Below are positions 9,781 through 51,323 of a stretch of 64,000 bases of DNA, piece after piece (the first letter of the stretch is position 1; each line of letters starts with the position of its first letter). The translations under genes and the position numbers were made by a program. Origin of the DNA: Bacteroidia bacterium (lineage in GTDB: Bacteria > Bacteroidota > Bacteroidia > 2-12-FULL-35-15); NCBI GenBank assembly GCA_036170475.1, contig JAVHPE010000126.1, forward strand, positions 3,999 to 67,998, in the 5' to 3' direction. Under the pieces are notes generated by a model. That model searched no databases. It saw only the letters and a program-made list of their open reading frames with translations, and was not told the DNA's origin.

Positions 9781-11049
9781 TTAATGATCATTTAATGGCA
9801 AACCTCTTTTCTGGTATTCAATCCAATTAAGATATTCATCCCCTTTCCGGTGTTCCACCATGGTAATACAATCATTTACCGGACAAACGATCTTACATAA
9901 ATTACAACCAACACATTCTTCTTCTTTAATTGTATAGGTGTTGTATGGAATTGCTCTTTCCACGGTAATTGCCTGATGAGATGTGTCTTCGCAGGAAATA
10001 TAACATAATCCGCAATGAATACATTTTTCCTGATCGATATTAGCTTCGATATGAAAATTGATGTCCAGCTCTTCCCATCTGGTAATTTTCGGAACGGATA
10101 AACCTATAAAATCATCGATACTTTTATAACCTCTTTCATCCATCCAGTTACTCATTCCATCACATAAGTCGGTAATAATTTTAAATCCATAAATCATTGC
10201 AGCGGTACAAACCTGCACATTACTTGAACCCAGGAGCATAAACTCTACCGCATCTTTCCAGGTGGTTATGCCACCAATACCGGAAATAGGGATATTCCGT
10301 AATTTAGCTTCCTGAGCAAGTGTTGTTACCATTTTCAAAGCAATTGGTTTTACAGCAGGACCACAATATCCACCAAAAACAGACTGTCCACCTACATTTG
10401 GATTTGGAACAAGTGTACCTAAATCAATTCCGGTAACGGATTGTATTGTATTAATTAGTGAAAGTCCATTTGTGCCACCTTCAAAAGCAGCAATTGCACC
10501 GGGAACGGCAGAATGAACATTGGGGGTAAGTTTTGTAATTACAGGAATTGATGCAACTTCCATTACCCATTCAACAACCATTTTTGCAATTTCAGGATCT
10601 TGTCCAACAGCAGCACCCATCCCTCTTTCAACCATTCCATGCGGACATCCGAAATTTAATTCTAATCCGTGAGCACCGGTATCCTGGGCTTTCTTAACCA
10701 GTTCATGCCAGCTTTTTCTGTCGTTATCAGCCATCAACGAAACAATCATAGCACGGTCTGGAAACAGTTTTATCACTTCTTTAATTTCTTTCAGATTTAT
10801 TGCAAGTGGCCGATCCGAAATAAGTTCTATATTATTAAAACCTACTGCTTTTCTTCCGTTATAGCTAAGTGCAGAATATCTTGATGACACATTTTTAACC
10901 TGGGAGCCAAGTGTTTTCCATACTACTCCGCCCCACCCTGCCTCAAATGCACGTAGAACATTTGTTTTTTTATCAGTTGGAGGAGCTGACGCTAACCAAA
11001 AAGGATTGGGCGATTTTATGCCTAGAAAGTTTGATTGTAAATTTGCCAT
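9781..11049 (-). CDS. preA: NAD-dependent dihydropyrimidine dehydrogenase subunit PreA (DHOD-like TIM barrel plus 2x[4Fe-4S] ferredoxin)
   Basis: FLGIKSPNPFWLASAPPT...GWGGVVWKTLG...NFGCPHGM is the DHPD/DHOD fold. The C-terminus CIHCGLCYISCEDTSHQ...CVGCNLCKIVCP has two 4Fe-4S motifs. Confidence 0.85.
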   Translation of the reverse strand: MANLQSNFLGIKSPNPFWLASAPPTDKKTNVLRAFEAGWGGVVWKTLGSQVKNVSSRYSALSYNGRKAVGFNNIELISDRPLAINLKEIKEVIKLFPDRAMIVSLMADNDRKSWHELVKKAQDTGAHGLELNFGCPHGMVERGMGAAVGQDPEIAKMVVEWVMEVASIPVITKLTPNVHSAVPGAIAAFEGGTNGLSLINTIQSVTGIDLGTLVPNPNVGGQSVFGGYCGPAVKPIALKMVTTLAQEAKLRNIPISGIGGITTWKDAVEFMLLGSSNVQVCTAAMIYGFKIITDLCDGMSNWMDERGYKSIDDFIGLSVPKITRWEELDINFHIEANIDQEKCIHCGLCYISCEDTSHQAITVERAIPYNTYTIKEEECVGCNLCKIVCPVNDCITMVEHRKGDEYLNWIEYQKRGLPLNDH

Positions 11050-11141
11050 GTTTTTATTATTTGAAAATTTGTTAATGTGCTAATTTAAAAATTAATATAA
11101 ATCTGATTAAATTCGTGTCGGAAGACAAGCCGAACAGCAAA

Positions 11142-13688
11142 TTATTTCTTAATAAATTTTCTTGATACTATTCCTTTTGAAGTAGCAATTCTTATCATAT
11201 ATATTCCGGGCTTAATATTTCTGATGTCAATACTATTTTTTGCAATCTGTGAATCCAATATCTTTTCACCCATCACATTAAAAATTTCTATCTTATTTTT
11301 TTCAAAATTTGCAAATTGTAAACCTGAAATGGTTAATTGATCATCTGCAGGATTTGGATAGATAAAAACAGCATTATTTTTGCCTGGTTCATTAATACTG
11401 GTAATTGAACTCAGATCCGATTCCCAGATCCCTCTTCCATAAGTGGCTGCCCTTAATTTACCTGCGGAGTATTGAATTTCCAGTTCATTAATAATTACAT
11501 TTGGCAAACCTGTGTTATAATAGGACCAATCACTCATAGAACTGTTTTTGTAATAAACGCCAAAATCCGTTCCAATGTAGAGTCCATCAATACTTCCGTT
11601 TTGGTAAACAATACAATTTACAGGAATATTTGGAAGCGTACCTGAAACATTTATCCATGTTAATCCACCGTCAATTGAATTATAAACCTTGTCACCGTTT
11701 GAGTATCCGGATAACGTTATCCAAACATTATCAGGGTCTGCAGAATTAATTGCAATGCCAGTAATTGCAGCATTATTAACGGGTAGATTTTGAGTAATCG
11801 TATTCCAACTTGTTCCTCCATTGATAGTTCTGAAAATATTTCCAAAGCTGGCAACGTATATATAATCCGTATTGGAAGGAGCAATGGCAACAGAATTCAA
11901 AGTAGCGCCACCATCAATATTGTTTGAAATTGCATTCCATGAATCTCCACCATCATCAGATTTGTAAACATCCTGGTATCCTGCAAAAAGGATTTGAGGG
12001 TTTGTCGGATGCATTACCATAGGAGTAACCCATGCACCAGTAACTCCTGGAGGAGTAATGTCTAAGGAGAAGGTAGTTCCACCATCTGTGGATTTTATAA
12101 AATCTCCTTCGTAAACAGAGGCATAAACAATATAACTGTCAGTATAATCAATAAAACATTCCATTCCGTCACCTTTAAACACATTATCAGAATAAATTCC
12201 ATAGATACGGTCGGTACCATTATCCTGTGCCCCTCCATAAATAAGATTCGGATCAAGTGCTGAACAACCAATGCGATAATATTGTTTTATATCCAATCCA
12301 TTACTTAAATCATACCAGCTAGTTCCCCCGTCCATAGTTTTAAAAATCCCACCATCATTACATGAAAATATAGTAGAACCATCCCCACCTGGCAAAAAAG
12401 TAATAAAATGGTTATCGGCATGTACATAATCTGTTGCATTCCAAGGATACCATTCTGATGTAGTATTCCAAGTGCTTCCACCATCCGCGCTTTTAGCAAG
12501 AATCACTCCCCCTAAATAAATCACATTTTCATCCAGAGGAGAAACTGCAAACGCCCTACCATAATAATCCAAATCAGTCACTAAAGCACTCGGAGAACTG
12601 CCAATATTCCAGGACGCTCCACAGTCTGTTGATTTGTAAAAATCTCCTCCGGTGCACCATAAATAAATAACATTTGAATTGGCGGGAGTAACTTCAATAG
12701 AAGCTCTTCCACCAGCGCAAAAGGTTGCGGAAAGAAGAAACCATGTGACTCCACCATCATTTGATCGATAAAGTCCTCCGTAACTGGATGCAAAAACAAT
12801 ATTTGGATTTGCTGTATTAAATTCAAGATCGTAAAAATCTCCGACCTGCACATTCGTCAATGTTATGGCTGCGTCACTTGATCTGTAAATACCTGTATTT
12901 GTTGCAACAATTAGTATATTTGGATTTACAGGATTAATAATTACTCTTTGAATCAAGTTACTCTGGGCTTGTGTATAATTTAAAGTGGTAGGACTCCAGG
13001 ATGTTCCCCCATCAATTGACTTCATAAGTCCAGCCCTATAATTACCACCAAAGAAACCCGGTATTCCACCCCAAAAACCATATTTATCTCCAGTAGCAAT
13101 GTACATAATATTAGTATTAAGGGGATTAATTATAATTTCAGAAATACTCAAAGCGGGAAGCAGATCCGTATTGGAAGACCATGTGTTACCACCATCAGTA
13201 GATTTCCAAAGTCCTCCGCATACTGAACCAATAAATAATGTGCTGGAATTATTTGGATCGAAGGCCATACAATTAATTCGTCCGGCACCACCACCTCCAC
13301 CGGGAACAATTTGCGGACCTAAAAATGTCCAGTTTGCAGACCTTTCTCCCAAAGATTTTTCAGTTGAATGTTCCGCTTTATATTTGAAATATTCTTTAAC
13401 AAGAATTTCGGGATCAGAAAAATTTCCTGAAGGATAAACACGTTGTTCTGTAAACCACTCCCAACGCTTAAATTGCTGCCATTCACCATCTTTATCCTTT
13501 CCTTTTTTATCTATTACGTTAGCAGATTTTTTTTTCCAATATTCATTGAATATTTTTTGAATATCATAAAAATTTGGTTTGGTGTTGATAATGGAATCGG
13601 TTCCGGCCTTCTTTAGCCATGATTGTGCATTTATTGAAGAAACTGAAACAATAAATGAAAAAAGGATACAAAATAAAGATTTTTTCAT
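11142..13688 (-). CDS. BNR/Asp-box repeat beta-propeller protein (GH74/sialidase-like) with T9SS C-terminal sorting domain
   Basis: Signal peptide present. At least eight S-x-D-G-G-x-T/S-W repeats (STDGGNTW, SIDGGTSW, SNDGGVTW, STDCGASW, SADGGSTW, TMDGGTSW, STDGGTTF, SDDGGDSW, TINGGTSW, SIDGGLTW). The C-terminus FIYPNPADDQLTI...GIYMIRIATSKGIVSRKFIKK is a Por/T9SS CTD. Confidence 0.75.
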   Translation of the reverse strand: MKKSLFCILFSFIVSVSSINAQSWLKKAGTDSIINTKPNFYDIQKIFNEYWKKKSANVIDKKGKDKDGEWQQFKRWEWFTEQRVYPSGNFSDPEILVKEYFKYKAEHSTEKSLGERSANWTFLGPQIVPGGGGGAGRINCMAFDPNNSSTLFIGSVCGGLWKSTDGGNTWSSNTDLLPALSISEIIINPLNTNIMYIATGDKYGFWGGIPGFFGGNYRAGLMKSIDGGTSWSPTTLNYTQAQSNLIQRVIINPVNPNILIVATNTGIYRSSDAAITLTNVQVGDFYDLEFNTANPNIVFASSYGGLYRSNDGGVTWFLLSATFCAGGRASIEVTPANSNVIYLWCTGGDFYKSTDCGASWNIGSSPSALVTDLDYYGRAFAVSPLDENVIYLGGVILAKSADGGSTWNTTSEWYPWNATDYVHADNHFITFLPGGDGSTIFSCNDGGIFKTMDGGTSWYDLSNGLDIKQYYRIGCSALDPNLIYGGAQDNGTDRIYGIYSDNVFKGDGMECFIDYTDSYIVYASVYEGDFIKSTDGGTTFSLDITPPGVTGAWVTPMVMHPTNPQILFAGYQDVYKSDDGGDSWNAISNNIDGGATLNSVAIAPSNTDYIYVASFGNIFRTINGGTSWNTITQNLPVNNAAITGIAINSADPDNVWITLSGYSNGDKVYNSIDGGLTWINVSGTLPNIPVNCIVYQNGSIDGLYIGTDFGVYYKNSSMSDWSYYNTGLPNVIINELEIQYSAGKLRAATYGRGIWESDLSSITSINEPGKNNAVFIYPNPADDQLTISGLQFANFEKNKIEIFNVMGEKILDSQIAKNSIDIRNIKPGIYMIRIATSKGIVSRKFIKK

Positions 13689-13719
13689 GTTTAAGAATGC
13701 TATACATTACTAAAAAATA

Positions 13720-14209
13720 TTTCCCGCAGATTTCGCAAATTTTCGCAGATTTTTTTCTTGGTTAACCCGTTCTATCTATTTGAGATATTTGTAAATTATT
13801 TACTTTCCTATAAATTGAATTTGAAATATTATCGGTATTGAAATTTACTAGTATTCCTAGCTTTTTACCAGACAATTTCAAGTAAGTTAATACTTGTTTG
13901 TGATGTACATCTGCAATTTGTTCTACAGATTTTATTTCAATAATAACTAAATCATTTACTATAATATCTATTCTAAAACCAATATCTAATTTTTCACTTT
14001 CATAAATTACAGGTAAGGCAACTTGTGATCTGACCTCCAGTCCTTTCTTTTTCAATTCGAACATTAAGACCGCTTCATAAACTGATTCCAACAGGCCTGG
14101 CCCAAGTGAATTGTAAACTTTAAAAATAGCACCTCTTATAATGTAAGAAATTTCATTTTCTATCATTTTCTTAATTTTTTCCGCGTAAATCCGTGAAATC
14201 TGCGGGAAA
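13720..14209. mobile_element. inverted-repeat-bounded GxxExxY gene cassette
   Basis: TTTCCCGCAGATTTC at 13720-13734 and its exact reverse complement at 14195-14209 flank the GxxExxY ORF. Confidence 0.5.
13762..14166 (-). CDS. GxxExxY protein (PD-(D/E)XK nuclease-like)
   Basis: 134 aa. GPGLLESVYEAVLMFELKKKGLEV...IDIIVNDLVIIEIKSVE is the canonical GxxExxY family signature. Confidence 0.85.
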   Translation of the reverse strand: MIENEISYIIRGAIFKVYNSLGPGLLESVYEAVLMFELKKKGLEVRSQVALPVIYESEKLDIGFRIDIIVNDLVIIEIKSVEQIADVHHKQVLTYLKLSGKKLGILVNFNTDNISNSIYRKVNNLQISQIDRTG

Positions 14210-15541
14210 CAAATATTCTAAAATCCCTTTTGCTCCATCTTTTCCAGCCTGAACAGCATCCACAACTTCTTTGCCTCCATTTACGGAATCTCCACCGGCA
14301 AAAACTCCTTTCAAATTGGTTTCAGATTTTTCATTGATAGAAATTTTTCCATTTTTATTTTGTACGGACGATTTATTCAGAAGTTCTTCGAATGGCATCT
14401 GTCCTGCAGCTTTAATCACCATATCTACATCAATAGTAAATGTTTCACCCGTATCAACAGGAGCTCTTCTGCCCGAAGCATCAGGATCACCAAGCTTCAT
14501 TTTGTTGCAAACCAATTTTTTTACGTTGCCATTTTCACCAATAATTTCTTTAGGACTAGCTAACCAAATAAATGAACAACCATCAAGTTTCGCTAAATCA
14601 AGTTCCACATCGGTACATGGTTTTTCATTTTCTGTTCTACGGTAAATCATCGTTACTTCTCTTGATCCAAGGCGTTTTGATTGTGTTGCGGCATCAATGG
14701 CAGTCATTCCCATGCCTATAACAGCCACCTTATCTCCAACGGCTGTTGAAGAATAATCATTCGTACGAAGGTCATAAACAAATGAAATAGCATCTACAAC
14801 ACCTTCTAATTTTTCACCCGGAATATCTAATGAACGTGCAATTCCAACGCCTATTCCTAAAAATACCGCGTCATATTTTTTTTGAAGATCCGCAAGTATA
14901 ATGTCCTTCCCTAACTCTTTATTATATTGAACATTAATGCCTCCAATAGAAAGAATATAATCCACTTCATTTTTACAAAACTCAGGAGTAACCTTGTAAG
15001 CTGCCACTCCATAGGTCATTAAGCCACCGCCCTTTTTTTCTTTTTCAAAAATTGTAACATCCACACCTTGCAGAGAAAGTGCGTGTGCACAAGCTAATCC
15101 GGCAGGACCGGCGCCAACAACCGCTGCTTTTTTTCCATTAGAATGATTACGTTCAAAAAGTTTCCATTTTTCCTGAATCGCTTTTTCAGTAACATATCGT
15201 TGAAGTTTAGAGATGGCTATTGGTTTTTCTTCGAGCAAATTAAATACACAAATTCCTTCACACAACTTTTCTACAGGGCAAACTTTTGAGCATCCTCCAC
15301 CCATAATATTGGAAGTAAAAATGGTTTTTGCTGAACCTTTAATATTCCCGGAAGAAATTTGTTTTATGAATAATGGAACGTCAATACTTGTAGGACATAA
15401 TTTAGTGCATGGTGCATCATAACAATTAATACACCTGTCGGCTTCAATCATAGCACCTTCAGCATGTTCAAAAGGGGGATGAACGTCAGAAAAATTTTCT
15501 ATTAAAACTTCTTTTGATAAACGATTGTTTTTGATTGACAT
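14171..15541 (-). CDS. preT: NAD-dependent dihydropyrimidine dehydrogenase subunit PreT (GltD-like)
   Basis: N-terminal Cys cluster CINCYDAPCTKLCP, then Rossmann motifs AAVVGAGPAGLACA and KVAVIGMGMTAIDAA. This is the glutamate-synthase small-subunit-like fold, with preA nearby. Confidence 0.85.
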   Translation of the reverse strand: MSIKNNRLSKEVLIENFSDVHPPFEHAEGAMIEADRCINCYDAPCTKLCPTSIDVPLFIKQISSGNIKGSAKTIFTSNIMGGGCSKVCPVEKLCEGICVFNLLEEKPIAISKLQRYVTEKAIQEKWKLFERNHSNGKKAAVVGAGPAGLACAHALSLQGVDVTIFEKEKKGGGLMTYGVAAYKVTPEFCKNEVDYILSIGGINVQYNKELGKDIILADLQKKYDAVFLGIGVGIARSLDIPGEKLEGVVDAISFVYDLRTNDYSSTAVGDKVAVIGMGMTAIDAATQSKRLGSREVTMIYRRTENEKPCTDVELDLAKLDGCSFIWLASPKEIIGENGNVKKLVCNKMKLGDPDASGRRAPVDTGETFTIDVDMVIKAAGQMPFEELLNKSSVQNKNGKISINEKSETNLKGVFAGGDSVNGGKEVVDAVQAGKDGAKGILEYLFPADFTDLRGKN

Positions 15542-15617
15542 ATTTGAAATTGTATTATTATGAAATTTTTTAATGAATTAAGACAATGCCGTTAAGTTAT
15601 TGAACAATATTTACCCA

Positions 15618-15692
15618 ACGCACAGTCTTCGACAAGTTCTGACTGATCATTGTGCGATGTCACACTGAGCTTGTCGAAGTGTGCGAAGGCAT
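15618..15692. repeat. REP-like palindromic intergenic repeat, family 1, copy 1
   Basis: CACAGTCTTCGACAAGTTCTGACTGA...TCACACTGAGCTTGTCGAAGTGTGCG, an imperfect palindrome with about 26-nt arms. Related copies at 21166-21242 and 58188-58232. Confidence 0.7.
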
Positions 15693-15735
15693 TATAAAAT
15701 TTGTTATTGATATTTTATAAATCTTTATAAAAAAA

Positions 15736-16188
15736 CTACAGCGTTTCTGAAACGGTAGCATCCTTTTTAACTAAAACAGTTTCTTTTGGAGCAATGACTA
15801 AGGCTGTCCCATCAATAACTACTTTTTGATCTTGATTCTTACAAATTGTGCTCAATAAAACCTGATTTCCCTTAGGAAAATCAACTACTTCAATATACGC
15901 AGTAATAATTTCGCCCATCAATACCGGAGCCAAAAATTTCATATTCTGGTTTAAATAAATTGTGCCATTGCCCGGCAAATTTTTACCTATTGCAGCTGAG
16001 ATAAGACTTCCAACTAAAAATCCATGAACAATTTTTTGTTTAAAAATGCTATTTTTCGCATACTCTTCATTAAGATGAATAGGATTATCATCTCCCGAAA
16101 TTTTAGCGAAAACTATGACTTCTTCTTCTGTAATAGATTTAGTAATTTGGGTTTTATCTCCAATTTTCAAATATTTGGTATTTTCCAT
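15736..16188 (-). CDS. MaoC-family dehydratase (hotdog fold)
   Basis: 150 aa. FAKISGDDNPIHLNEEYAKNSIFKQKIVHGFLVGSLISAAIG is the MaoC signature. Confidence 0.8.
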   Translation of the reverse strand: MENTKYLKIGDKTQITKSITEEEVIVFAKISGDDNPIHLNEEYAKNSIFKQKIVHGFLVGSLISAAIGKNLPGNGTIYLNQNMKFLAPVLMGEIITAYIEVVDFPKGNQVLLSTICKNQDQKVVIDGTALVIAPKETVLVKKDATVSETL

Positions 16189-16346
16189 TGTACGTTATTT
16201 TAATTTTCCATTGCGTATTGTTACTGGATTTGCGTAAATATTGGTCATTCGTTTAATCCCCCTAACCCCTCCTTCGGCAAGCTCAGGACAGGCTTTTTCA
16301 AGGGGGAATTGTTCCGTATCCTTAGGGTAGTAGGATGGACATATTA

Positions 16347-17213
16347 TTACAGTTCCGTTAATCTACCGTAGGTTTCAGGTCTTCTGTCTCTGTAAAATTG
16401 CCAGGTACCTCTCACTTCTTCAATCATATCAAGATCAAAGTCAGCAATTAATAATTCGTCTTTATCTTCTGAGGCACAGGCAAATATTTGTCCGCGTGGA
16501 TCAACAAAATAAGAGCTTCCATAAAACTTACCTAAGTTCCAAGGTTTTTCCATTCCAACTCTGTTAATGCAACCCATAAAATAGCCATTTGCAGCTGCAT
16601 GGGCAGGTTGTTCCAATTTCCATAAATATTGCGATAATCCAGCGACCGTTGCAGACGGATTATAAACTATTTCAGCTCCATTTAATCCAAGGCATCTTGC
16701 ACCATCAGGAAAATGTCTGTCATAACAAATGTACACACCTATTTTCGCATATTTAGTTTGAAATACCGGATAACCAAGGTTTCCAGGCTTAAAGAAAAAC
16801 TTTTCCCAAAAGCCTGATGTTTGAGGAATATGATTTTTCCTGTATTTACCAAGATAGGTGCCATCTGCATCAATCACTGCAGCGGTATTATACAAAACTC
16901 CTTCCTGCTCCTTCTCATAGATCGGAACGATAATTACCATGTTGTATTTTTTCGCATACGTTGCCATCAAATCAGTAGTTGGTCCCGGAACAGCTTCTGC
17001 CGAAGCATACCATTTGTTATCTTGTCCCGGGCAGAAATAAGGAGTATTAAATATTTCCTGCAGACATAATATCTGAACTCCCTTTTTTCCGGCTTCCTCG
17101 ATATACGGAATGTGTTTTTGCACCATTGCATTGCAAATTTCTTTAATTGTTCCTTCTCCTTCAGTCATTGGAAGGCTCATTTGAATAAGTCCTGATTTAA
17201 TAATTCTTGCCAT
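16347..17213 (-). CDS. carbon-nitrogen hydrolase (nitrilase superfamily), beta-ureidopropionase / N-carbamoyl-amino-acid amidohydrolase-like
   Basis: 288 aa. Catalytic-triad context: E in LCLQEIF, K in GKYRKNHIP, C in GVYICYDRHFPD. Lies between preT and dihydropyrimidinase. Confidence 0.7.
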   Translation of the reverse strand: MARIIKSGLIQMSLPMTEGEGTIKEICNAMVQKHIPYIEEAGKKGVQILCLQEIFNTPYFCPGQDNKWYASAEAVPGPTTDLMATYAKKYNMVIIVPIYEKEQEGVLYNTAAVIDADGTYLGKYRKNHIPQTSGFWEKFFFKPGNLGYPVFQTKYAKIGVYICYDRHFPDGARCLGLNGAEIVYNPSATVAGLSQYLWKLEQPAHAAANGYFMGCINRVGMEKPWNLGKFYGSSYFVDPRGQIFACASEDKDELLIADFDLDMIEEVRGTWQFYRDRRPETYGRLTEL

Positions 17214-17361
17214 GTGGTTTAGTTTAGAGTTAAAAGTTTAGAGTTAAGAGTTTTTGTTTTGTGTTAAAAAAGTTTTGAGCTATATAGTTTTGAGTTAAAA
17301 GTGTAAATAGTTTTGAGTTAAAAGTTTAGAGTTATGAGTTTTTGTAGTGTGTTAAAAAAGT
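17214..17361. repeat. tandem duplication (about 45-bp units) at the left end of the four-helix-bundle cassette
   Basis: AGTTTAGAGTTAAGAGTTTTTGTTTTGTGTTAAAAAAGTTTTGAGC, then AGTTTAGAGTTATGAGTTTTTGTAGTGTGTTAAAAAAGTTTAGAGTT, with extra GAGTTAAAAGT units. Confidence 0.6.
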
Positions 17362-17752
17362 TTAGAGTTGTTTTGTTAAATATTTTTCTTTTGTTGTAAG
17401 TATAATACTGCTCAGAATTTTCATAAGTTCATTGCAATTATTTATTAAATTAATGTATTCTTCTTTATCTATGAAACCACTATCCGAAAGTAAATTAAGC
17501 CAATATGCCGTTTCTCTTGCTTCTTTTAATGAGATACTCATTTTGTGAATAAAATCTCTTTTTGATTCCCCTGCTAAAGCTTCGTTAATATTGGCTCCTA
17601 TGGAAGTGCCAGAACGTAAAACTTGTTTTGATAAAATAAATTCTCTCTTTTCAGACGATAAATTTTTGTAAAGTTTAATTATTAATAACGCAAAAGCATA
17701 AGATTTCCTTCCAACAATACTATCATTCTGTTTTAATAAACTCATAACTCTA
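17327..17752. mobile_element. inverted-repeat-bounded four-helix-bundle gene cassette
   Basis: TAGAGTTATGAGTTT at 17327-17341 and its exact reverse complement AAACTCATAACTCTA at 17738-17752. The ORF start codon lies inside the right arm. Confidence 0.5.
17362..17745 (-). CDS. four-helix-bundle protein (TIGR02436 / 23S rRNA intervening-sequence protein family)
   Basis: 127 aa. LSKQVLRSGTSIGANINEALAGESKRDFIHKMSISLKEARETAYWL is the family signature. Confidence 0.8.
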   Translation of the reverse strand: MSLLKQNDSIVGRKSYAFALLIIKLYKNLSSEKREFILSKQVLRSGTSIGANINEALAGESKRDFIHKMSISLKEARETAYWLNLLSDSGFIDKEEYINLINNCNELMKILSSIILTTKEKYLTKQL

Positions 17753-17763
17753 CTCTCTTAATT

Positions 17764-19143
17764 TTAAACTAAAGTAAATTTATTTCTTCTGATAAATTTA
17801 CCATATCCTTTTTCGACAAGTAATTTATTATCATCCACAGCTACATTACCTCTCAGGATTATTGTTTTGCATTTACCTGTTAATTGCCATCCTTCATAAC
17901 CGGAATAATCACAATTCATATGATGAGTTTTTGCAGAAATGGTATGCTTTTCATTCGGATCTAAAATTACTATATCAGCATCAGAACCTACAGCAATAGT
18001 ACCTTTCTGAGGATACATTCCAAATATTTTGGCTGCATTTGTGGAACTTACCTCAACAAATTTGTTCAGACTGATTTTATTTTTAATTACTCCTTCGGAG
18101 AATAATAATTCCATCCTGTTTTCAATTCCCGGAGCCCCATTCGGGATTTTTGTGAAATCGGTTGAACCCGCTTTCTTTTGTTCCCATGTGAATGGGCAAT
18201 GATCTGTCGCAACCACTTGCACAGTTCCCTGATTGATTCCTGCCCATAGACTTGTCTGATCTTTTTTCTCCCGTATCGGTGGACTCATCACCCATTTTGC
18301 AGATTCAAACCCTTTGTCATAAACAGAAGCATCGAGGACCAAATATTGAATACAGGTTTCAACAAAAATTTTCTGATTTCTTTTAGCAGCATCTCGGATG
18401 TGATTAAGCGCATCCTCGCTGGTCAGGTGTACAACATAAGATGGGACTCCTGTATGATACGCCATATCAGAAAAACGGCTTGTGGCTTCGCTTTCAGTAA
18501 TTTCGGGCTGAGATAAATAATGAAACAGAGGAGAAAGTTTCCCTTCCGATTTATGCTTCGCTACTAAGTAATCAATCATATCGCCATTGGTAGCATGAGT
18601 AGTTAATAATCCACCCTGTTTTTTTACTTCATGCATCAAGCCAATCATTTGCTTATCGTCAATCATTAAAGCACCTTTATAAGCCATGAATGTTTTGAAA
18701 GAAGTAATACCCTCTTTTTCAATCATGTCTTTTATTTCAGATCTGATTTCTTCATTAAAATCTGTTACGGACATGTGAAAAGAATAATCTCCAACAGCAT
18801 TTCCATCAGCACGACCCTTCCATTCATTTAATGCTGCGTATAAGGATTTCCCTTGTTTTTGGATCACAAAATCTATTACCATGGTAGTTCCTCCAAAAAG
18901 GGCTGCACGTGTTCCCGTTTCGTAATTATCACTGGAATAAGTCCCCATGAAGGGCATATCCAGATGAACATGAGGATCGATACCACCGGGTATTACCAAT
19001 TTGTTTTTTGCATCTATAACTATGTCCGCATTAACTGAAAGGTTGAGACCGATAAGTTTTACTTTTTCCTTTTCAATATAAATATCTGCAACATAATCAT
19101 CAGCAGCAGTTATAACTCTCCCATTTTTTATTAGAATTGACAT
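17764..19143 (-). CDS. dihydropyrimidinase / D-hydantoinase (cyclic amidohydrolase)
   Basis: ILIKNGRVITA...VIPGGIDPHVHLDMPFMGT...FKTFMAYKGALM, with metal-binding H-x-H, a carbamylated-Lys region and VVATDHCPF. Start set at MSILIKNG. Confidence 0.85.
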   Translation of the reverse strand: MSILIKNGRVITAADDYVADIYIEKEKVKLIGLNLSVNADIVIDAKNKLVIPGGIDPHVHLDMPFMGTYSSDNYETGTRAALFGGTTMVIDFVIQKQGKSLYAALNEWKGRADGNAVGDYSFHMSVTDFNEEIRSEIKDMIEKEGITSFKTFMAYKGALMIDDKQMIGLMHEVKKQGGLLTTHATNGDMIDYLVAKHKSEGKLSPLFHYLSQPEITESEATSRFSDMAYHTGVPSYVVHLTSEDALNHIRDAAKRNQKIFVETCIQYLVLDASVYDKGFESAKWVMSPPIREKKDQTSLWAGINQGTVQVVATDHCPFTWEQKKAGSTDFTKIPNGAPGIENRMELLFSEGVIKNKISLNKFVEVSSTNAAKIFGMYPQKGTIAVGSDADIVILDPNEKHTISAKTHHMNCDYSGYEGWQLTGKCKTIILRGNVAVDDNKLLVEKGYGKFIRRNKFTLV

Positions 19144-19310
19144 GTATGTTTTTTTAATCAAAGAATTTAAAATTCAATAAAAGATACAAAAATCAAATTT
19201 AATGAAATTTTCCAGAGGCTCTATATCTCACTTCCAAAATTTTATATTTTTTTGAATAAATTTTGCTTATATTTAGCTTCCTTAATTTTATAGACTTTAA
19301 AAATACTTTC

Positions 19311-21035
19311 ATGTTTGAAATAGGTACAGGAATAAGCGATATCACTGCTTTTAAGAAAGGCGTTGGAATGATGGGTTATGGGATGTACTTCAACACCGTT
19401 GAAGAAGTTGAGACGCCACTTTCCGCAAGGGCTTTTGTAGTTAAAAATTCGGAAACACAGAAAAAAATAGTATTTGTGAATACTGAACTATGTTTCATTT
19501 CTATTTCGGTCAAATACGGTGTTGTTGAAACACTAAAAGAAAAATACCCTCAATTTGGTTACACATCAGATAATGTGATATTGACAGCACAACACACACA
19601 CAGTGCTCCAGGAGGATTTACGCATTATGCGTTTTATAATTTAACCATTCCGGGATTTGTACCGGAAGTTTATCAAACTATTATCAAGGGTATCGTAGAG
19701 GCTATCGTGCAAGCAGAATCAAGTATTCAGCAGGGGAATATTTATTTGAACACAGGTATTTTTGAATCTCAACATGAAGTTGCATTCAACCGATCGATAA
19801 AGGCTTATAACTGCAATCCTGAGGTTACAAAAATTGATGAAAACAAAACACATCTTGCTGTGGACAGAGAAATGACTTTATTACGGATGGAAGGGTTAAA
19901 TGGAAAAAAAATTGGAATGCTCAATTGGTTCGGAGTACATGCGACAAATATTCCAAGCAACAATCATAAAATCTGTAATGATAACAAGGGTTATGCCTCT
20001 ACTTATTTTGAAGAAGATGTTCGATCCTCCGGAGAGCAAAAAAATTTCTTAGCGATATTTGCGCAAGGTTCCTGCGGTGATGTAAGTCCGAATTTCGTGT
20101 GGGACAAGAGAAAAAAACGCACCCATGGAAAATTTGAAAATGCTTTTGAAAGTGCCAAATACAATGGAAAATTACAATACACCAAGGCAAAGGAAATTTA
20201 TGAAACAGCACTAAACAATCAACCTTTAAAGAGTGAGATTGATTATGCTTTGATGTATGCTGATTTTTCAAACATTAATCCTGACAAAGAATTTACTAAT
20301 GGGCAAGATGTGAAAACAGGGGCAGCTTGTCATGGAGTTGCCTTCTTTGAAGGGACAGCTGAAGGTCCTGGGATGAGTGATGCACTTGGATCAGTTTCAC
20401 GTTTTGTATCTCGTGCGGTTAAAAAATATGAATATACAAAAGCGATTTTTCTATCTGCCGAGGAACGAAAAAAAATTCATGATAAATATAAAATTCAAGG
20501 AAAAAAAGATATCTTTTTTGAAACAGGAGATCGAAAAGTGCTGGGGACATCCGATATAAAAAATATGATAATTCCTTCCTGGATTGATAAAGGGATAAGT
20601 ACTTTCAAAGAACAGCACAGGAACGGCTCCCTCAATAAACCATGGATTCCGGAAATTTTACCTCTGCAAATCATTGTCATTGGAGAATTGGCTATTGCAG
20701 CTTTCCCCGCAGAAATTACTACCGTTGCCGGATGGCGGCTGAGAGACACTATCCTCAATATTTTGAAAAAAAGAGGGATTACAAAAGTTATTGTTTCTCC
20801 TTATGCAAATGCCTACTGTGGTTATGTTACTACCTATGAAGAATACCAATGTCAATGTTATGAAGGCGGTCACACAGTTTTTGGCGAGTGGACATTAGCC
20901 GCATTTCAAACTAAGTATAAACAGTTAGCCTTGCAACTGCTTGAAAAACCCGAGAATCGTACGATAGATAAAAATATTGCACCTATTAAATTTACCAAGG
21001 AAGAGTTAGATAAGAGAAGTTTTTCGGAAGTGTAA
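19311..21035 (+). CDS. neutral/alkaline ceramidase family protein
   Basis: Contains the neutral-ceramidase hexapeptide GDVSPN (IFAQGSCGDVSPNF), together with VILTAQHTHSAPGG and a C-terminal tail domain. Start taken at MFEIGTG. My position count in this block differs by 1 nt from the ORF table, so the start is given to within 1 nt. Confidence 0.75.
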   Translation: MFEIGTGISDITAFKKGVGMMGYGMYFNTVEEVETPLSARAFVVKNSETQKKIVFVNTELCFISISVKYGVVETLKEKYPQFGYTSDNVILTAQHTHSAPGGFTHYAFYNLTIPGFVPEVYQTIIKGIVEAIVQAESSIQQGNIYLNTGIFESQHEVAFNRSIKAYNCNPEVTKIDENKTHLAVDREMTLLRMEGLNGKKIGMLNWFGVHATNIPSNNHKICNDNKGYASTYFEEDVRSSGEQKNFLAIFAQGSCGDVSPNFVWDKRKKRTHGKFENAFESAKYNGKLQYTKAKEIYETALNNQPLKSEIDYALMYADFSNINPDKEFTNGQDVKTGAACHGVAFFEGTAEGPGMSDALGSVSRFVSRAVKKYEYTKAIFLSAEERKKIHDKYKIQGKKDIFFETGDRKVLGTSDIKNMIIPSWIDKGISTFKEQHRNGSLNKPWIPEILPLQIIVIGELAIAAFPAEITTVAGWRLRDTILNILKKRGITKVIVSPYANAYCGYVTTYEEYQCQCYEGGHTVFGEWTLAAFQTKYKQLALQLLEKPENRTIDKNIAPIKFTKEELDKRSFSEV

Positions 21036-21165: not shown

Positions 21166-21242
21166 GCCCACAGTCTTCGACAAGCTCTGACTGACCGCGC
21201 GCTGGTCATATTGAGCCTGTCGAAATATGTGCGATAGCATCT
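21166..21242. repeat. REP-like palindromic repeat, family 1, copy 2
   Basis: CACAGTCTTCGACAAGCTCTGACTGA...TGAGCCTGTCGAAATATGTGCGATAGCATC. Confidence 0.7.
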
Positions 21243-21269: not shown

Positions 21270-22502
21270 TTGTTTGGTTTGATAAAAATATTAAGTTTAA
21301 TTCGCATGACAGATTTTTCAAGAAATTACAATTATTACAAAAAAGTTTTTAAAGGCGTTCAAATGCCCTTTGCTTTTGTTGATATGGATATGTTCAATAA
21401 AAACAAGGAAGATATACTAAAAAGAGCTGGCAATAAAAAAATCCGGATTGCTTCAAAATCTATACGTTGCCTGAGTTTGATAAAAAATATTCTCTCCTCA
21501 AATTCTATTTTTCAAGGAGTAATGTGTTATCATCCTTTGGAAGCAGTCTACCTTAGTGAAAATGGGTTAGATGATTTGTTGATTGCTTATCCGATTTTCC
21601 ACGAACAACATATTTCAGCCATTTGTAAAGAGATAAAAAAAAGAAAATCAATAATTGCAATGGTTGATTTGACGGAACATGCGGTACAGCTTAACCATAT
21701 CGCTGAGCAAGAAAATTGCATACTCCCGGTTTGTATGGATATAGATATGTCAAGTGATTTCGGACTTTTACATTTTGGAGTCAGACGCTCAAAAGTAACA
21801 ACAACAGAACAGGCAATGGAATTATTCCATCAAATAAAAAAATTAAAAAACTTACGATTAGAAGGAATAATGGGCTACGAGGCACAAATAGCAGGAGTTG
21901 GTGATTTTACTGATAGTGCCCTTAAAAATAGTATCCTACCTATTTTGAAAAAAAAATCCGTGAAAGAAATTGCAAAACGAAGATCAGAAATTGTTAATAG
22001 AATTCAGTCAGAAGGTCATCAATTAAAATTCGTAAATGGTGGTGGAACAGGAAGTTTAGAGACTACCATAAAAGAATCCTGCATTACGGAAATTACGGTT
22101 GGTTCAGGATTTTATTCGCCTACATTGTTTGATAATTACAAAAATTTCCATCACCTACCTGCTGCAGCATATTCCATTGAAATTACCCGAAATCCAAAAC
22201 CTTCCGTTTTTACTTGTTACGGAGGAGGATATACTGCTTCTGGCTCGATGGAGAAAAATAAGTTACCAAAACCATACCTGCCAACAGGCGCAAAACTAAT
22301 CGAAACAGAAGGTGCAGGCGAAGTTCAAACACCCATTGTATATAATGGGGAAGAAAAGCTGAAATTAGGCGATCCTATTTTTATGCGTCATGCAAAGGCA
22401 GGAGAATTGTGCGAAAGGTTTAATTCATTATTGTTAATTGCTAATGGAAAAATTATTGATGAAGTAAAAACCTATCGTGGTGATGGGAAATGTTTTTTAT
22501 AA
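21270..22502 (+). CDS. PLP-dependent enzyme with alanine-racemase-like N-terminal domain (DSD1 / D-serine dehydratase / D-threonine aldolase-like)
   Basis: 410 aa. KIRIASKSIRC... (candidate PLP lysine), TIM-barrel-like alternation, and a C-terminal beta domain. Family call from memory; the true start is probably an internal Met (MTDFSR or MPFAFV). Confidence 0.45.
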   Translation: MFGLIKILSLIRMTDFSRNYNYYKKVFKGVQMPFAFVDMDMFNKNKEDILKRAGNKKIRIASKSIRCLSLIKNILSSNSIFQGVMCYHPLEAVYLSENGLDDLLIAYPIFHEQHISAICKEIKKRKSIIAMVDLTEHAVQLNHIAEQENCILPVCMDIDMSSDFGLLHFGVRRSKVTTTEQAMELFHQIKKLKNLRLEGIMGYEAQIAGVGDFTDSALKNSILPILKKKSVKEIAKRRSEIVNRIQSEGHQLKFVNGGGTGSLETTIKESCITEITVGSGFYSPTLFDNYKNFHHLPAAAYSIEITRNPKPSVFTCYGGGYTASGSMEKNKLPKPYLPTGAKLIETEGAGEVQTPIVYNGEEKLKLGDPIFMRHAKAGELCERFNSLLLIANGKIIDEVKTYRGDGKCFL

Positions 22503-49052: not shown

Positions 49053-49088
49053 CAAAAAAAAAGGAGTACCGCATTGGTGCTCCTTTTT
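49053..49088. terminator. bidirectional rho-independent terminator
   Basis: A-run, GGAGTACC-gcat-TGGTGCTCC, T-run. Lies just 3' of the minus-strand Ala-rich lipoprotein gene. Confidence 0.6.
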
Positions 49089-49105
49089 AAGTTTGCAAAA
49101 AGAAA

Positions 49106-49381
49106 TTATTTTTTCTTTTTACCACCTTTTTTTGCGGCAGCTTCAGCTTCAGCAGCTTTTGCAGCTTCTTCAGCAGCGGTAGCATCAGCAGCAGCTTTAG
49201 CAGCAGCTTCAGCAGCGGCAGCCTCTTCAGCAGCTTTAGCGGCGGCAGCAGCAGCGGCTTCTACTTGTGCTATTGAATCTTTTGTAGCTTTTTCTTTAGC
49301 AGCTTTTTCTTCAGCGCTTGGTCCACAAGCAGCGAATGTAAACACACCTGCTAGGGCAACTAATGTAAATACTTTTTTCAT
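49106..49381 (-). CDS. Ala/Lys/Glu-rich small lipoprotein (paralog 1)
   Basis: MKKVFTLVALAGVFTFAACG lipobox, then an AEEKAAKEKA...AAAKAAEEAAAAEAAAKAA helical low-complexity stretch and a KKGGKKKK tail. Confidence 0.65.
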   Translation of the reverse strand: MKKVFTLVALAGVFTFAACGPSAEEKAAKEKATKDSIAQVEAAAAAAAKAAEEAAAAEAAAKAAADATAAEEAAKAAEAEAAAKKGGKKKK

Positions 49382-49473
49382 TTTGTTTTGTTTGTGATTT
49401 TAATTAAAATTTGCACAAAGCTACATTTATTTTTTTATTTCAAACAACTATTTTAAAAAAAATTCTTCAAGAC

Positions 49474-49526: not shown

Positions 49527-49847
49527 TTAACCTCTTCCTTGACCAGGTTTAACCGGTGCTGGCTCAGCCTTTTTAACGGGCTTAGCTTTTCCACCTTTTT
49601 TTGCAGCTTTTGCAGCTTCTTCAGCAGCAGCAGCATCAGCAGCAGCTTTAGCAGCAGCTTCAGCAGCAGCAACTTCGGCAGCTTTTGCAGCTTCAGCAGC
49701 AGCAGCAGCTTGAGCAGCAGCAGCTTCTACAACAGCAATTGAATCTTGTTTTGCTTTTTCTTTAGCGGCTATTTCTTCAGCGCTTGGTCCGCATGCATAG
49801 AATGAAAACATTCCTGCTACGGCAACTAATGTAAGTACTTTTTTCAT
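49527..49847 (-). CDS. Ala/Lys/Glu-rich small lipoprotein (paralog 2)
   Basis: MKKVLTLVAVAGMFSFYACGPSAEEIAAKEKAKQDSIAVVEAAAAQAAAAAEAAKAAE... About 70% identical to paralog 1 over the N-terminal 40 aa. Confidence 0.65.
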   Translation of the reverse strand: MKKVLTLVAVAGMFSFYACGPSAEEIAAKEKAKQDSIAVVEAAAAQAAAAAEAAKAAEVAAAEAAAKAAADAAAAEEAAKAAKKGGKAKPVKKAEPAPVKPGQGRG

Positions 49848-50999: not shown

Positions 51000-51323
51000 T
51001 TAACGCTTATTTCTTTTAATAATTTCCATAGGGTATTGTTTGGTGTGGAATACGTCTGTTATAATTACTTGATTGTTCCTGTGTTGATAAATGATCTTAT
51101 AATTGCCTTCTACTATATATCTGCTGTTTTGTTTTAAGTGTTTAAGCAGTTGTTCTTCCGATCCGGAGTCAGGAAAGTTTTGTAATTGCTCCGCCCGAGC
51201 GATTAATTTGTTAATGTATTTAATAGCGATCGTTTCCGATCGCGTTTCATGTTCAATGTAATCTTTGATCTCATCTAAACTTTTTAAAGCAAAGGGTGTC
51301 CAAGCTAGTTTTACGTTATTCAT
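51000..51323 (-). CDS. type II toxin-antitoxin toxin, RelE/ParE family
   Basis: 107 aa. WTPFALKSLDEIKDYI...RYIVEGNYKIIYQHRNNQVIITDVFHTKQ. Confidence 0.75.
   Translation of the reverse strand: MNNVKLAWTPFALKSLDEIKDYIEHETRSETIAIKYINKLIARAEQLQNFPDSGSEEQLLKHLKQNSRYIVEGNYKIIYQHRNNQVIITDVFHTKQYPMEIIKRNKR

Follow-up and report, generated by a model that had tools for sequence, protein, structure and literature searches.

A probable uracil/thymine operon of an uncultured Bacteroidota with its three internal junctions filled by co-oriented genes, two of them bounded by inverted repeats

Introduction

Can an operon for the reductive breakdown of uracil and thymine take up unrelated genes between its members and remain in use? 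The question is raised by positions 9781-19161 of a 64-kb stretch of DNA (contig JAVHPE010000126.1, hereafter the window) from an uncultured member of the Bacteroidota, whose nearest species-level relatives are metagenome-assembled genomes (MAGs) of Bacteroidia or Bacteroidota. This region holds eight consecutive open reading frames (ORFs), all on the minus strand, and the ORF list contains no credible ORF on the plus strand. In the order of transcription they encode a dihydropyrimidinase (DHP), a four-helix-bundle protein (4HB), a CN-hydrolase (CNH), a MaoC-domain protein, the dihydropyrimidine dehydrogenase (DPD) subunit PreT, a GxxExxY protein, a BNR-repeat protein secreted by the type IX secretion system (T9SS) and the second DPD subunit PreA, with families assigned by Pfam and NCBIfam. 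An earlier reading of the DNA by a model (the original prediction) had placed four pathway genes and four intervening genes on the minus strand; all eight ORFs lie where it had put them, and their families were confirmed. It had also spoken of all four steps of the pathway. The four genes are indeed present, but they encode three enzymatic steps.

We believe that the region is a live, single-orientation uracil/thymine operon that arose from a compact ancestor and has had all three of its internal junctions filled in the orientation of the operon. We put the probability of this explanation at about 0.78.

Results

A compact operon in related Bacteroidota

Relatives were collected by a PreT scan with one genome per species, which yielded 80 Bacteroidota loci (Chitinophagales, Flavobacteriales, Cytophagales and others) on MAG contigs with flanks of at most 10 kb; 50 of the 80 hold all four enzyme genes. 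DHP, CNH, PreT and PreA follow one another in one order and one orientation in all of the loci with enough contig. All junctions are shorter than 200 nt in 20 of the 50 complete loci, and gaps have medians of 77-93 nt. Each of the 67 loci that hold both PreT and PreA has PreA downstream on the PreT strand, in 44 of them with a gap below 300 nt. It is because of this compactness that the four extra genes of the window are read as insertions, and the order in relatives bears out the original prediction that four unrelated insertions split the enzyme genes.

At least 43 of the loci L005-L084 have a gene for an NCS1 permease (Transp_cyt_pur) upstream of DHP and on its strand, and such a gene is found in L086 (at 94-1578), L088, L090 and L092 as well. 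Further upstream than the permease, in some loci sampled via 4HB homologues, lies a class-III aminotransferase gene (Aminotran_3). In 11 relatives a 144-aa deaminase of the cytidine deaminase (CDA) fold is encoded upstream of DHP, at a distance of 28-133 nt in 8 of them (for example L010:7209-7640, L015:1103-1534 and L033:5848-6285). The protein has HAE...PCxxC motifs, is TadA/FCY1-like and scores below all NCBIfam cut-offs; its probable role is to feed the pathway by deamination of cytosine or a related nucleobase. No copy of it is present in the window. The full gene set of the relatives covers uptake, deamination, reduction, ring opening, decarbamoylation and transamination of beta-alanine. 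As part of the explanation given above, the ancestor of the window operon was of the compact kind widespread in Bacteroidota, with the order (aminotransferase)-NCS1 permease-(deaminase)-DHP-CNH-PreT-PreA. The 5' permease of most relatives is missing from the window operon, either by loss or because it was never there; in the clade of the window, L008, L009, L011 and L049, a divergent ceramidase-like gene stands upstream of DHP instead of the permease.

The arrangement in the window is not an assembly artefact, because the same order is found in independent assemblies. Of four independent Logan assemblies, two (L001 and L002) contain the order PreT-GxxExxY-BNR-PreA, a third extends to the start of the BNR gene and the fourth ends before it. 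In a further sample (L101) the gene order is identical. An assembly chimera as the source of the BNR insertion is thereby ruled out.

Enzymes of the reductive pathway

PreA scores 651 bits with the equivalog model NF006183 (cut-off 335; residues 1-415 of 422). It combines a dihydroorotate dehydrogenase-like FMN domain (PF01180) with a C-terminal 2x[4Fe-4S] ferredoxin domain (PF14697) and is 40% identical to E. coli PreA over its full length. DHP scores 585 bits with the equivalog model TIGR02033 (cut-off 393), as against 262 with the allantoinase model and at most 233 with dihydroorotase models. Its start is likely the ATG at 19143 rather than the TTG at 19161, because the family alignment begins at residue 9 of the longer ORF. 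PreT has an N-terminal 2x[4Fe-4S] domain (domain II of DPD) followed by FAD and NAD(P)H domains, and is 32% identical to E. coli PreT across 430 residues, its full length (E = 1e-60). Its best NCBIfam models are of the GltD/NfnB type, below cut-off, and its top matches in the PDB are NfnB-type chains. Because no curated model splits PreT from such paralogues, it is identified by its partner PreA and by synteny.

The closest solved relatives of CNH are the beta-ureidopropionases of Drosophila (2vhh, 2e-61) and human (6ftq/8pt4, 6e-58), and its catalytic Glu, Lys and Cys motifs (cLQE, RKnHIP and ICYdRH) align with those of 2vhh and 8pt4. D-carbamoylase gives only 2e-26, and CNH reaches 241 with the aguB model, whose cut-off is 410. 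CNH lies between DHP and PreT wherever both neighbours are on the contig, a genomic context that would settle it as a beta-ureidopropionase. For the pathway as a whole, identity is settled by synteny and context in the 80 loci. The assignment made in the original prediction is thus upheld by PreA and DHP above equivalog cut-offs, by the match of PreT and PreA to the E. coli subunits, by the nearness of CNH to beta-ureidopropionases and by conserved synteny. Of the paralogues from other pathways that had been named as possible sources of confusion, the allantoinase model, like the dihydroorotase models, falls well below the DHP score, while for PreT the best models are indeed GltD/NfnB-type, yet below cut-off.

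All four enzymes are full length, and rough ratios of nonsynonymous to synonymous substitution (dN/dS) of 0.007-0.074 in the insertion-carrying clade indicate strong purifying selection. The ratio is ~0.06 for DHP, which is 83-85% identical to its orthologues in L008, L009, L011 and L049; it is 0.007-0.04 for CNH, which is 83-97% identical across all 80 loci, and 0.03-0.05 for PreA. The literature that we searched held no discussion of the pathway in this phylum, in keeping with the earlier remark that it is seldom discussed for Bacteroidota. The chemistry of the pathway is textbook knowledge, to which the operon adds a well-supported member from the Bacteroidota.

The 4HB cassette in the DHP-CNH junction

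The 4HB protein scores 114 bits with TIGR02436 (cut-off 24) and matches PDB entry 2RLD with E = 1e-32. The left inverted-repeat arm of its cassette pairs with both right arms (inverted repeats I1 and I2) over 34-36 nt with 82-83% complementarity, and the right arms consist of 7/14-nt tandem units (AACTCTAAAC-like). The 4HB and GxxExxY ORFs are exactly enclosed by the three longest inverted repeats of the region. The terminal stem of the 4HB cassette is present in both the minimum free energy (MFE) and the centroid RNA folds. RNAalifold also finds it across 11 orthologous cassettes, with 85.7% of cells paired compared with 33-50% when the partner was slid. In relatives whose DHP-CNH junction has no ORF, one arm-like unit is retained just upstream of CNH.

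Four sampled 4HB homologues (87, 71, 70 and 64% identity) all occupy the DHP-CNH junction of the same operon, and none of the four was found at an unrelated site. The 4HB is therefore not a recent coloniser; by these sequence comparisons its lineage is old and bound to one junction. The dN/dS of the 4HB gene is about 0.05 against L011. A second 4HB subtype occurs in L035 and L049, and seeding the cassette hidden Markov models (HMMs) with it as well brought no further members.

The GxxExxY cassette and the end of preT

The GxxExxY protein scores 142 bits with TIGR04256 (cut-off 35), and its translation contains GLLESVY and RID...IEIK (D...ExK) motifs. The arms of the cassette are 30 nt long and 83% complementary; its fold has z = -4.9 and is closed by the stem in both MFE and centroid structures. 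The left arm sits in the preT frame and encodes the last 12 PreT codons (~14174-14209). PreT of relatives ends near residue 447 (...EYLGIK*), while that of the window and L005 continues into the arm (FPADFTDLRGKN*). Because the arm encodes the C-terminal tail of PreT, the insertion mildly altered a pathway protein. The original prediction held that the cassettes had colonised the operon without obviously destroying it. The enzymes are full length with low dN/dS, and to this extent we infer that the operon was left undestroyed; the tail of PreT, though, was changed.

GxxExxY homologues of 85-86% identity lie in the same PreT-PreA junction. Two others lie elsewhere: a Fulvivirgaceae genome has one of 77% with A2M and PBP1c genes on either side, and a Bacteroidales MAG has one of 75% flanked by rpoD and rpe. 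Each is co-oriented with its neighbours. The same termini, TTTCCCGCAGAT...ATCTGCGGGAAA, bound the units in the window and at both unrelated loci. Because the same termini recur at unrelated loci in other orders, units of inverted repeat, ORF and inverted repeat would be, or have been, mobile as a whole. The dN/dS of the GxxExxY gene is about 0.08-0.09.

MaoC, BNR and the REP-like hairpins

The nearest solved proteins to MaoC are PhaJ-type hydratases (5cpg, 1e-32; 1iq6, 2e-23). Only the close clade (window, L005-L009, L011 and L049) has the gene in its CNH-PreT junction, with 74-88% identity and dN/dS of about 0.06-0.10. It is a stable acquisition by the ancestor of this small clade and has no mobile-element signature of its own. 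A role for MaoC as a downstream beta-alanine enzyme (for example beta-alanyl-CoA ammonia-lyase) was considered and is unsupported, PhaJ-type hydratases being its nearest solved relatives.

The original prediction was right that a repetitive extragenic palindromic (REP) element flanks MaoC; the REP-like hairpins are real. The one in the MaoC-PreT spacer is the same element in the same position in L005, and other relatives hold different ORF-less hairpins there. The G+C-rich hairpin of the CNH-MaoC spacer is missing from L008, L009 and L049, in which this spacer is 40 nt. The hairpins on both sides of MaoC are later additions, common only to the window and L005.

The BNR protein ends in a T9SS sorting domain (PF18962; 50 bits with TIGR04183, cut-off 23) and is encoded by an ordinary secreted-protein gene. 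None of the 80 species loci has a BNR gene at the PreT-PreA junction. Homologues of 82% and 71% identity downstream of PreT on two metagenomic contigs rule out that this insertion is unique to the species of the window. A contig of ENA ERZ27297709 carries two tandem BNR/T9SS genes (1121 and 840 aa) downstream of PreT, without a GxxExxY cassette; because of this pair, secreted BNR genes can be said to have entered the junction in other lineages too. When L101 is compared with the window, the GxxExxY protein is 98% identical and the adjoining BNR protein only 82%, which points to fast BNR evolution or to recombination inside the junction.

Distribution, decay and enrichment of the cassettes

The 4HB occupies 7 of 51 DHP-CNH and 9 of 62 PreT-PreA junctions, and GxxExxY 6 of 62 PreT-PreA junctions with one occurrence at each of the other two. 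By parsimony on a core-gene tree, made by quick neighbour-joining, at least 22 gain or loss events are needed. Almost every intact cassette in relatives is armed, and its arm sequence varies by lineage while complementarity is kept. Ungapped arm matching was used here, as RNAduplex energies of whole flanks are poor at parting cassettes from ordinary genes, long flanks always pairing weakly. The type of arm tracks the ORF family: AT-rich GAGTTATGA/TGTTGAATG units go with 4HB, and CGCAGATTT/CGCAAAGG/CACGGAT units with GxxExxY. There are at least 9 distinct combinations of arm type and junction, which argues for several independent insertions in one operon.

The DHP-CNH junction also shows a series of decay, with a GxxExxY pseudogene between arms in L008, an internal deletion in L009 and a bare hairpin in L013. 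ORF-less hairpins with arms of the 4HB or GxxExxY type are found at other junctions of L007, L008, L011 and L049, and compact junctions such as that of L010 keep one or two arm-like units. Intact cassette ORFs have rough dN/dS values of 0.05-0.09 against the window copies (0.14 for L005 against L006), as low as those of the enzymes.

In 1.17 Mb of sequence (the 80 loci and the window) we counted 20 4HB and 17 GxxExxY ORFs. All 37 are co-oriented with the operon; 35 lie in or immediately beside it, and 2 in the other 0.78 Mb, a raw count that shared ancestry inflates. The two cassette ORFs of the operon are the sole members of their families in the window, where no near-identical copy of either cassette was found. 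In a Pfam screen of 150 small flank ORFs there was no PDDEXK_3 beyond the four already counted, and 23S_rRNA_IVP stayed below the three members needed for listing.

The original prediction had called the cassettes selfish. They may be so, and the GxxExxY unit at unrelated loci agrees with this; against it stand purifying selection on the cassette ORFs that equals that on the enzymes, a junction-bound 4HB, a stable MaoC and an ordinary BNR gene.

Other genes found in the junctions of relatives encode a TMEM175-like channel, an S9 peptidase, a Bro-N protein, nucleotidyltransferase-like 150-aa proteins, a methyltransferase and a PKD/T9SS protein. A third type of small co-oriented insert occupies the PreT-PreA junction in L054 (3315-3767) and L068 (11546-12007). 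Its 150-153-aa proteins (MANLFNDDYLDFLEA...GGYAVILHG...) have no NCBIfam match, look nucleotidyltransferase-like by eye and are ~85% identical between the two genomes. In a 4HB-carrying lineage (L090:4405-6343 and L091:4291-6049) PreT is called in pieces, as a 128-aa Fer4_20 or a 230-aa Pyr_redox_2 fragment; this preT is either a pseudogene or host to a further insertion.

Discussion

In the explanation that we favour, PreT and PreA would reduce the base, dihydropyrimidinase would open the ring and the beta-ureidopropionase-type CNH would release beta-alanine. The DHP-CNH junction would have been filled by the 4HB gene, with its inverted repeats made of short tandem units and its start codon in the left arm. 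The CNH-PreT junction would have received a PhaJ-like MaoC gene in the ancestor of the small clade, with REP-like hairpins added on both sides later. In the PreT-PreA junction, GxxExxY and its ~30-nt inverted repeats would have come in with a left arm that replaced the end of preT, and the T9SS BNR gene stands next to it within the same junction. The whole array of 9.4 kb, including the 2.5-kb BNR gene, may be read from one promoter upstream of DHP, the inserted genes riding on that transcript. The only intergenic match on the minus strand between 9700 and 19330 to TAnnTTTG, the -7 box of the Bacteroides and Flavobacterium promoter literature, lies upstream of DHP. A sigma-70 promoter scan gave 38 sites where 41 were expected, and a terminator scan found none in the junctions and 7 overall, compared with 6.6 expected; of these outcomes, only the lack of terminators in the junctions is informative. 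By analogy with the elements of 23S rRNA, the cassette stems may fold in RNA and be cut by RNase III. Expression would then not be abolished; the long transcript would come apart into hairpin-ended pieces, with the stems as processing or stability sites in it.

A number of observations weigh against this explanation. No NCS1 gene is present anywhere in the window, and both the permease and the aminotransferase of relatives are missing from its operon. N-carbamoylputrescine amidase matches CNH at 1e-55, only a small margin below the beta-ureidopropionases, and no NCBIfam equivalog names CNH or PreT. Synonymous divergence is near or above saturation, so that all dN/dS figures are rough. Internal promoters that depart from the -7 consensus would escape a scan for it. 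Covariation in the 4HB stem is modest, the observed score being reached by 35 of 500 shuffles. In the sense strand of the cassette stems, the counts of G:U and A:C are 8 and 23 for 4HB and 13 and 11 for GxxExxY; because there is no excess of G:U, the sequence gives no sign that the stems act in sense RNA. No target-site duplication was seen at the ends of the GxxExxY arms. The 4HB lineage, finally, looks vertically inherited on the sequence evidence, and its mobility would be historical at best.

The small genes might instead be accessory members of the operon, kept for their proteins or hairpins, for example in setting the stability of transcript segments or in acting on the enzymes. We regard this as rather unlikely. 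It would account well for 4HB homologues down to 64% identity that all stay at DHP-CNH, for GxxExxY homologues of 85-86% at PreT-PreA, for cassette dN/dS values (0.05-0.09) as low as those of the enzymes, and for the co-orientation of all cassettes and their strong enrichment in the operon. It fits poorly with the fact that most operons are compact and do without cassettes (4HB in 7/51 DHP-CNH and 9/62 PreT-PreA junctions), with the existence of pseudogenes and deletion derivatives, and with close relatives that hold different families in the same junction. The same GxxExxY unit also stands between unrelated genes elsewhere, the 4HB family is otherwise known from intervening sequences of rRNA, and no link of either fold to pyrimidine chemistry is known. 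The arms themselves could belong to the host, as intercistronic REP-like hairpins into whose loops small ORFs alone move, as intervening sequences enter at rRNA helix tips. In its favour, these junctions hold in relatives hairpins that have similar arms but no ORF, and arm sequences vary between junctions. It is nevertheless improbable, given that the arm type tracks the ORF family, that the GxxExxY termini travel with their ORF to unrelated loci in other orders and that the 4HB start codon lies inside an arm.

A different doubt concerns the working of the operon. The insertions may have split it, leaving PreA, and perhaps CNH and PreT, as separate units or poorly expressed, with the pathway impaired or being lost. 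The 2.5-kb secreted-protein gene and a cassette between preT and preA, the missing 5' permease and aminotransferase and the seemingly fragmented PreT of the L090/L091 lineage would all agree with such a loss, which we consider unlikely: the four ORFs are full length with dN/dS of 0.007-0.074 across the insertion-carrying clade, the junctions have no terminator-like sites, and the BNR arrangement persists in lineages in which BNR has diverged to 71-82% identity. Still less probable is that the cluster serves something other than pyrimidine nitrogen, namely the making of beta-alanine for coenzyme A or the degradation of hydantoins or other cyclic amides. NCS1 permeases and dihydropyrimidinases act on hydantoins as well, and the window version of the operon is without permease and aminotransferase. 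A study of Rhizobium (PMC7142369) describes a beta-alanine synthase of the uracil pathway that supplies pantothenate synthesis. The reductive chemistry would be the same either way, however, and CNH matches beta-ureidopropionases (2e-61) much better than it does D-carbamoylases (2e-26). PreA also exceeds the PreA equivalog cut-off, and in 11 relatives the operon includes a cytosine-deaminase-like gene.

If a live uracil/thymine operon is accepted, it can be set beside known pathways. The window has a split DPD, as in E. coli, and its nearest counterparts include the animal route of DPD, dihydropyrimidinase and beta-ureidopropionase. The E. coli locus comprises preTA only, whereas the window operon brings all three steps together. 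Its CNH is of the eukaryote-like type but is without the N-terminal extension of ~70 residues of eukaryotic beta-ureidopropionases. Functional preTA orthologues are widespread in gut Firmicutes and Proteobacteria (bioRxiv 10.1101/820084); in contrast to the hosts of that survey, the host of the window is an uncultured Bacteroidota.

The cassettes resemble several classes of element without belonging to any one of them. Coxiella's intervening sequence (IVS) in 23S rRNA is 428-444 nt long and has a terminal stem of 28 bp, an S23p ORF within its loop and tandem heptamers ahead of the ATG, and it is excised by RNase III (PMC4990558). Compared with such IVSs of Coxiella and Leptospira, the 4HB cassette is likewise an element of ~430-500 nt with a terminal stem of ~28-36 bp and the same four-helix-bundle family in the loop, and both have short tandem repeats beside the start codon. 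The 4HB cassette lies between the mRNA-operon genes DHP and CNH, however, and not in helix 45 of 23S rRNA, and its ORF is under strong purifying selection whereas that of Coxiella is decaying. It is therefore IVS-like but not classed as an IVS, because it lies outside any 23S rRNA helix. REP elements, bacterial interspersed mosaic elements (BIMEs) and miniature inverted-repeat transposable elements (MITEs) share with the cassettes intergenic hairpins in co-oriented operons and ORF-less derivatives beside ORF-bearing forms, and a REP-like hairpin is repeated in the window; the cassettes differ in carrying a conserved ORF between their arms. No RAYT or other transposase turned up in the region studied, though no search was aimed at them, and target-site duplications were not seen. 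Integron cassettes are also apparently promoterless, co-oriented small genes that gather at one place and depend on upstream transcription, and folded imperfect inverted repeats belong to the unit. In the window, though, the repeats bracket the ORF where an integron cassette has a single attC at its 3' end, and insertion is between genes of a metabolic operon, with no array beside an integrase. Genes for PD-(D/E)XK homing endonucleases offer a further likeness, that of a small nuclease-fold ORF between conserved genes with a patchy spread; a 2012 survey of the PD-(D/E)XK superfamily gives PDDEXK_3 as of unknown function and records multiple transfers (PMC3424549). Terminal inverted repeats are no feature of homing-endonuclease genes, however, and the nuclease role of GxxExxY is putative.

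It is tempting to join the two cassettes into one class of promoterless, inverted-repeat-bounded intergenic mobile element, the same class as the ORF-bearing 23S rRNA IVS. Such elements would insert along the direction of transcription, be excised from host RNA at the terminal stem and decay to ORF-less hairpins; the GxxExxY nuclease would act on its own arms, and the Bacteroidota pyrimidine operon would be a preferred site of landing or retention with ~30- to 40-fold enrichment. We offer this joint reading tentatively and lean against it as a whole.

New here are an anatomy like that of IVSs, an enrichment specific to the operon and the contrast of a position-bound 4HB lineage with a mobile GxxExxY unit. 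The literature searched contains no description of 4HB or GxxExxY genes as cassettes bounded by inverted repeats. The two families have no known function and are very large, with 5882 matches for four-helix-bundle proteins and at least 7999 for GxxExxY proteins (of 8000 candidates scored) at E <= 1e-10. Both appear here as discrete inverted-repeat-bounded units with the anatomy of rRNA IVSs, whose origin and mobility have been at issue since about 1990. One conserved operon offers dozens of natural versions of three junctions, filled, decayed or ORF-less, and is a concrete system for the study of element insertion, RNase III processing from mRNA and the roles of cassette proteins. The work also allows annotation of a complete reductive pyrimidine operon in many uncultured Bacteroidota, which bears on nucleobase turnover in soil and freshwater and on bacterial inactivation of fluoropyrimidines.

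Coordinates and other features of the window

The features of the operon are collected in Table 1.

Table 1. Positions in the window of the operon genes, cassette arms, hairpins and candidate promoter
Feature	Position	Strand	Basis or remark
PreA, DPD subunit (step 1)	9781..11049	-	NF006183 equivalog
Retained 3' part of older PreT-PreA spacer (AAATTAGCACATTAACAAATT...), directly upstream of preA	11050..11100	.	Common to ORF-less spacers of L007 and L008
T9SS-secreted BNR/Sortilin-repeat protein	11142..13688	-	PF15902, TIGR04183
GxxExxY right inverted-repeat arm, 9-10-nt CGCAGATTT units	13720..13749	.	I3
GxxExxY protein (PD-(D/E)XK fold, PDDEXK_3)	13762..14166	-	TIGR04256, PF13366
GxxExxY left inverted-repeat arm TTTCCCGCAGATTTCACGGATTTACGCGGA	14180..14209	.	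I3
PreT-like DPD subunit (step 1 with PreA)	14171..15541	-	Fer4_20 (PF14691) and Pyr_redox_2 (PF07992)
REP-like hairpin, MaoC-PreT spacer	15619..15685	.	Inverted repeat I7, fold z = -4.8
MaoC-domain protein, PhaJ-like (R)-specific enoyl-CoA hydratase	15736..16188	-	PF01575
G+C-rich hairpin, CNH-MaoC spacer, half REP motif CTGAGCTTGCCGAAG	16257..16307	.	Inverted repeat I12 and fold
CN-hydrolase (CNH), putative beta-ureidopropionase (step 3, N-carbamoyl-beta-alanine to beta-alanine, CO2 and NH3)	16347..17213	-	PF00795, 226 bits
4HB cassette right-arm region, up to CNH ATG	17214..17361	.	Arm copies 17308-17341 and 17218-17253
Four-helix-bundle protein (4HB; S23p/23S_rRNA_IVP)	17362..17745	-	PF05635, TIGR02436
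4HB cassette left inverted-repeat arm	17738..17773	.	Spans DHP stop codon, contains 4HB start codon
Dihydropyrimidinase (DHP; step 2, dihydrouracil/dihydrothymine to N-carbamoyl-beta-amino acid)	17764..19143	-	TIGR02033 equivalog
Candidate Bacteroidetes-type -7 box TAAATTTG, 51 nt upstream of DHP ATG	19194..19201	-	Consensus match (TAnnTTTG)

Rfam and tRNA scans of the window found no RNA genes and no rRNA. The ceramidase-like gene upstream of DHP (19263-21035, plus strand) encodes a 590-aa homologue of neutral/alkaline ceramidases (PF04734, 402 bits) and is divergent from the operon. It adjoins the operon in the close clade only and belongs to a family that is unusual for a Bacteroidota genome. 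A second copy of the REP-like hairpin (CTTCGACAAGCTC...; z = -4.7) lies at about 21170-21230, between the ceramidase-like gene and an Ala_racemase_N-like gene (21270-22502), and is directly preceded by another strong G+C-rich hairpin. Farther along the window, three ORFs of ~107 aa (49074-49397 on the plus strand, 49527-49847 and 51000-51323 on the minus strand) overlap GCAGC-rich tandem arrays with periods of 3, 9, 15, 18 and 39 nt, and probably encode low-complexity Ala/Lys-rich proteins.

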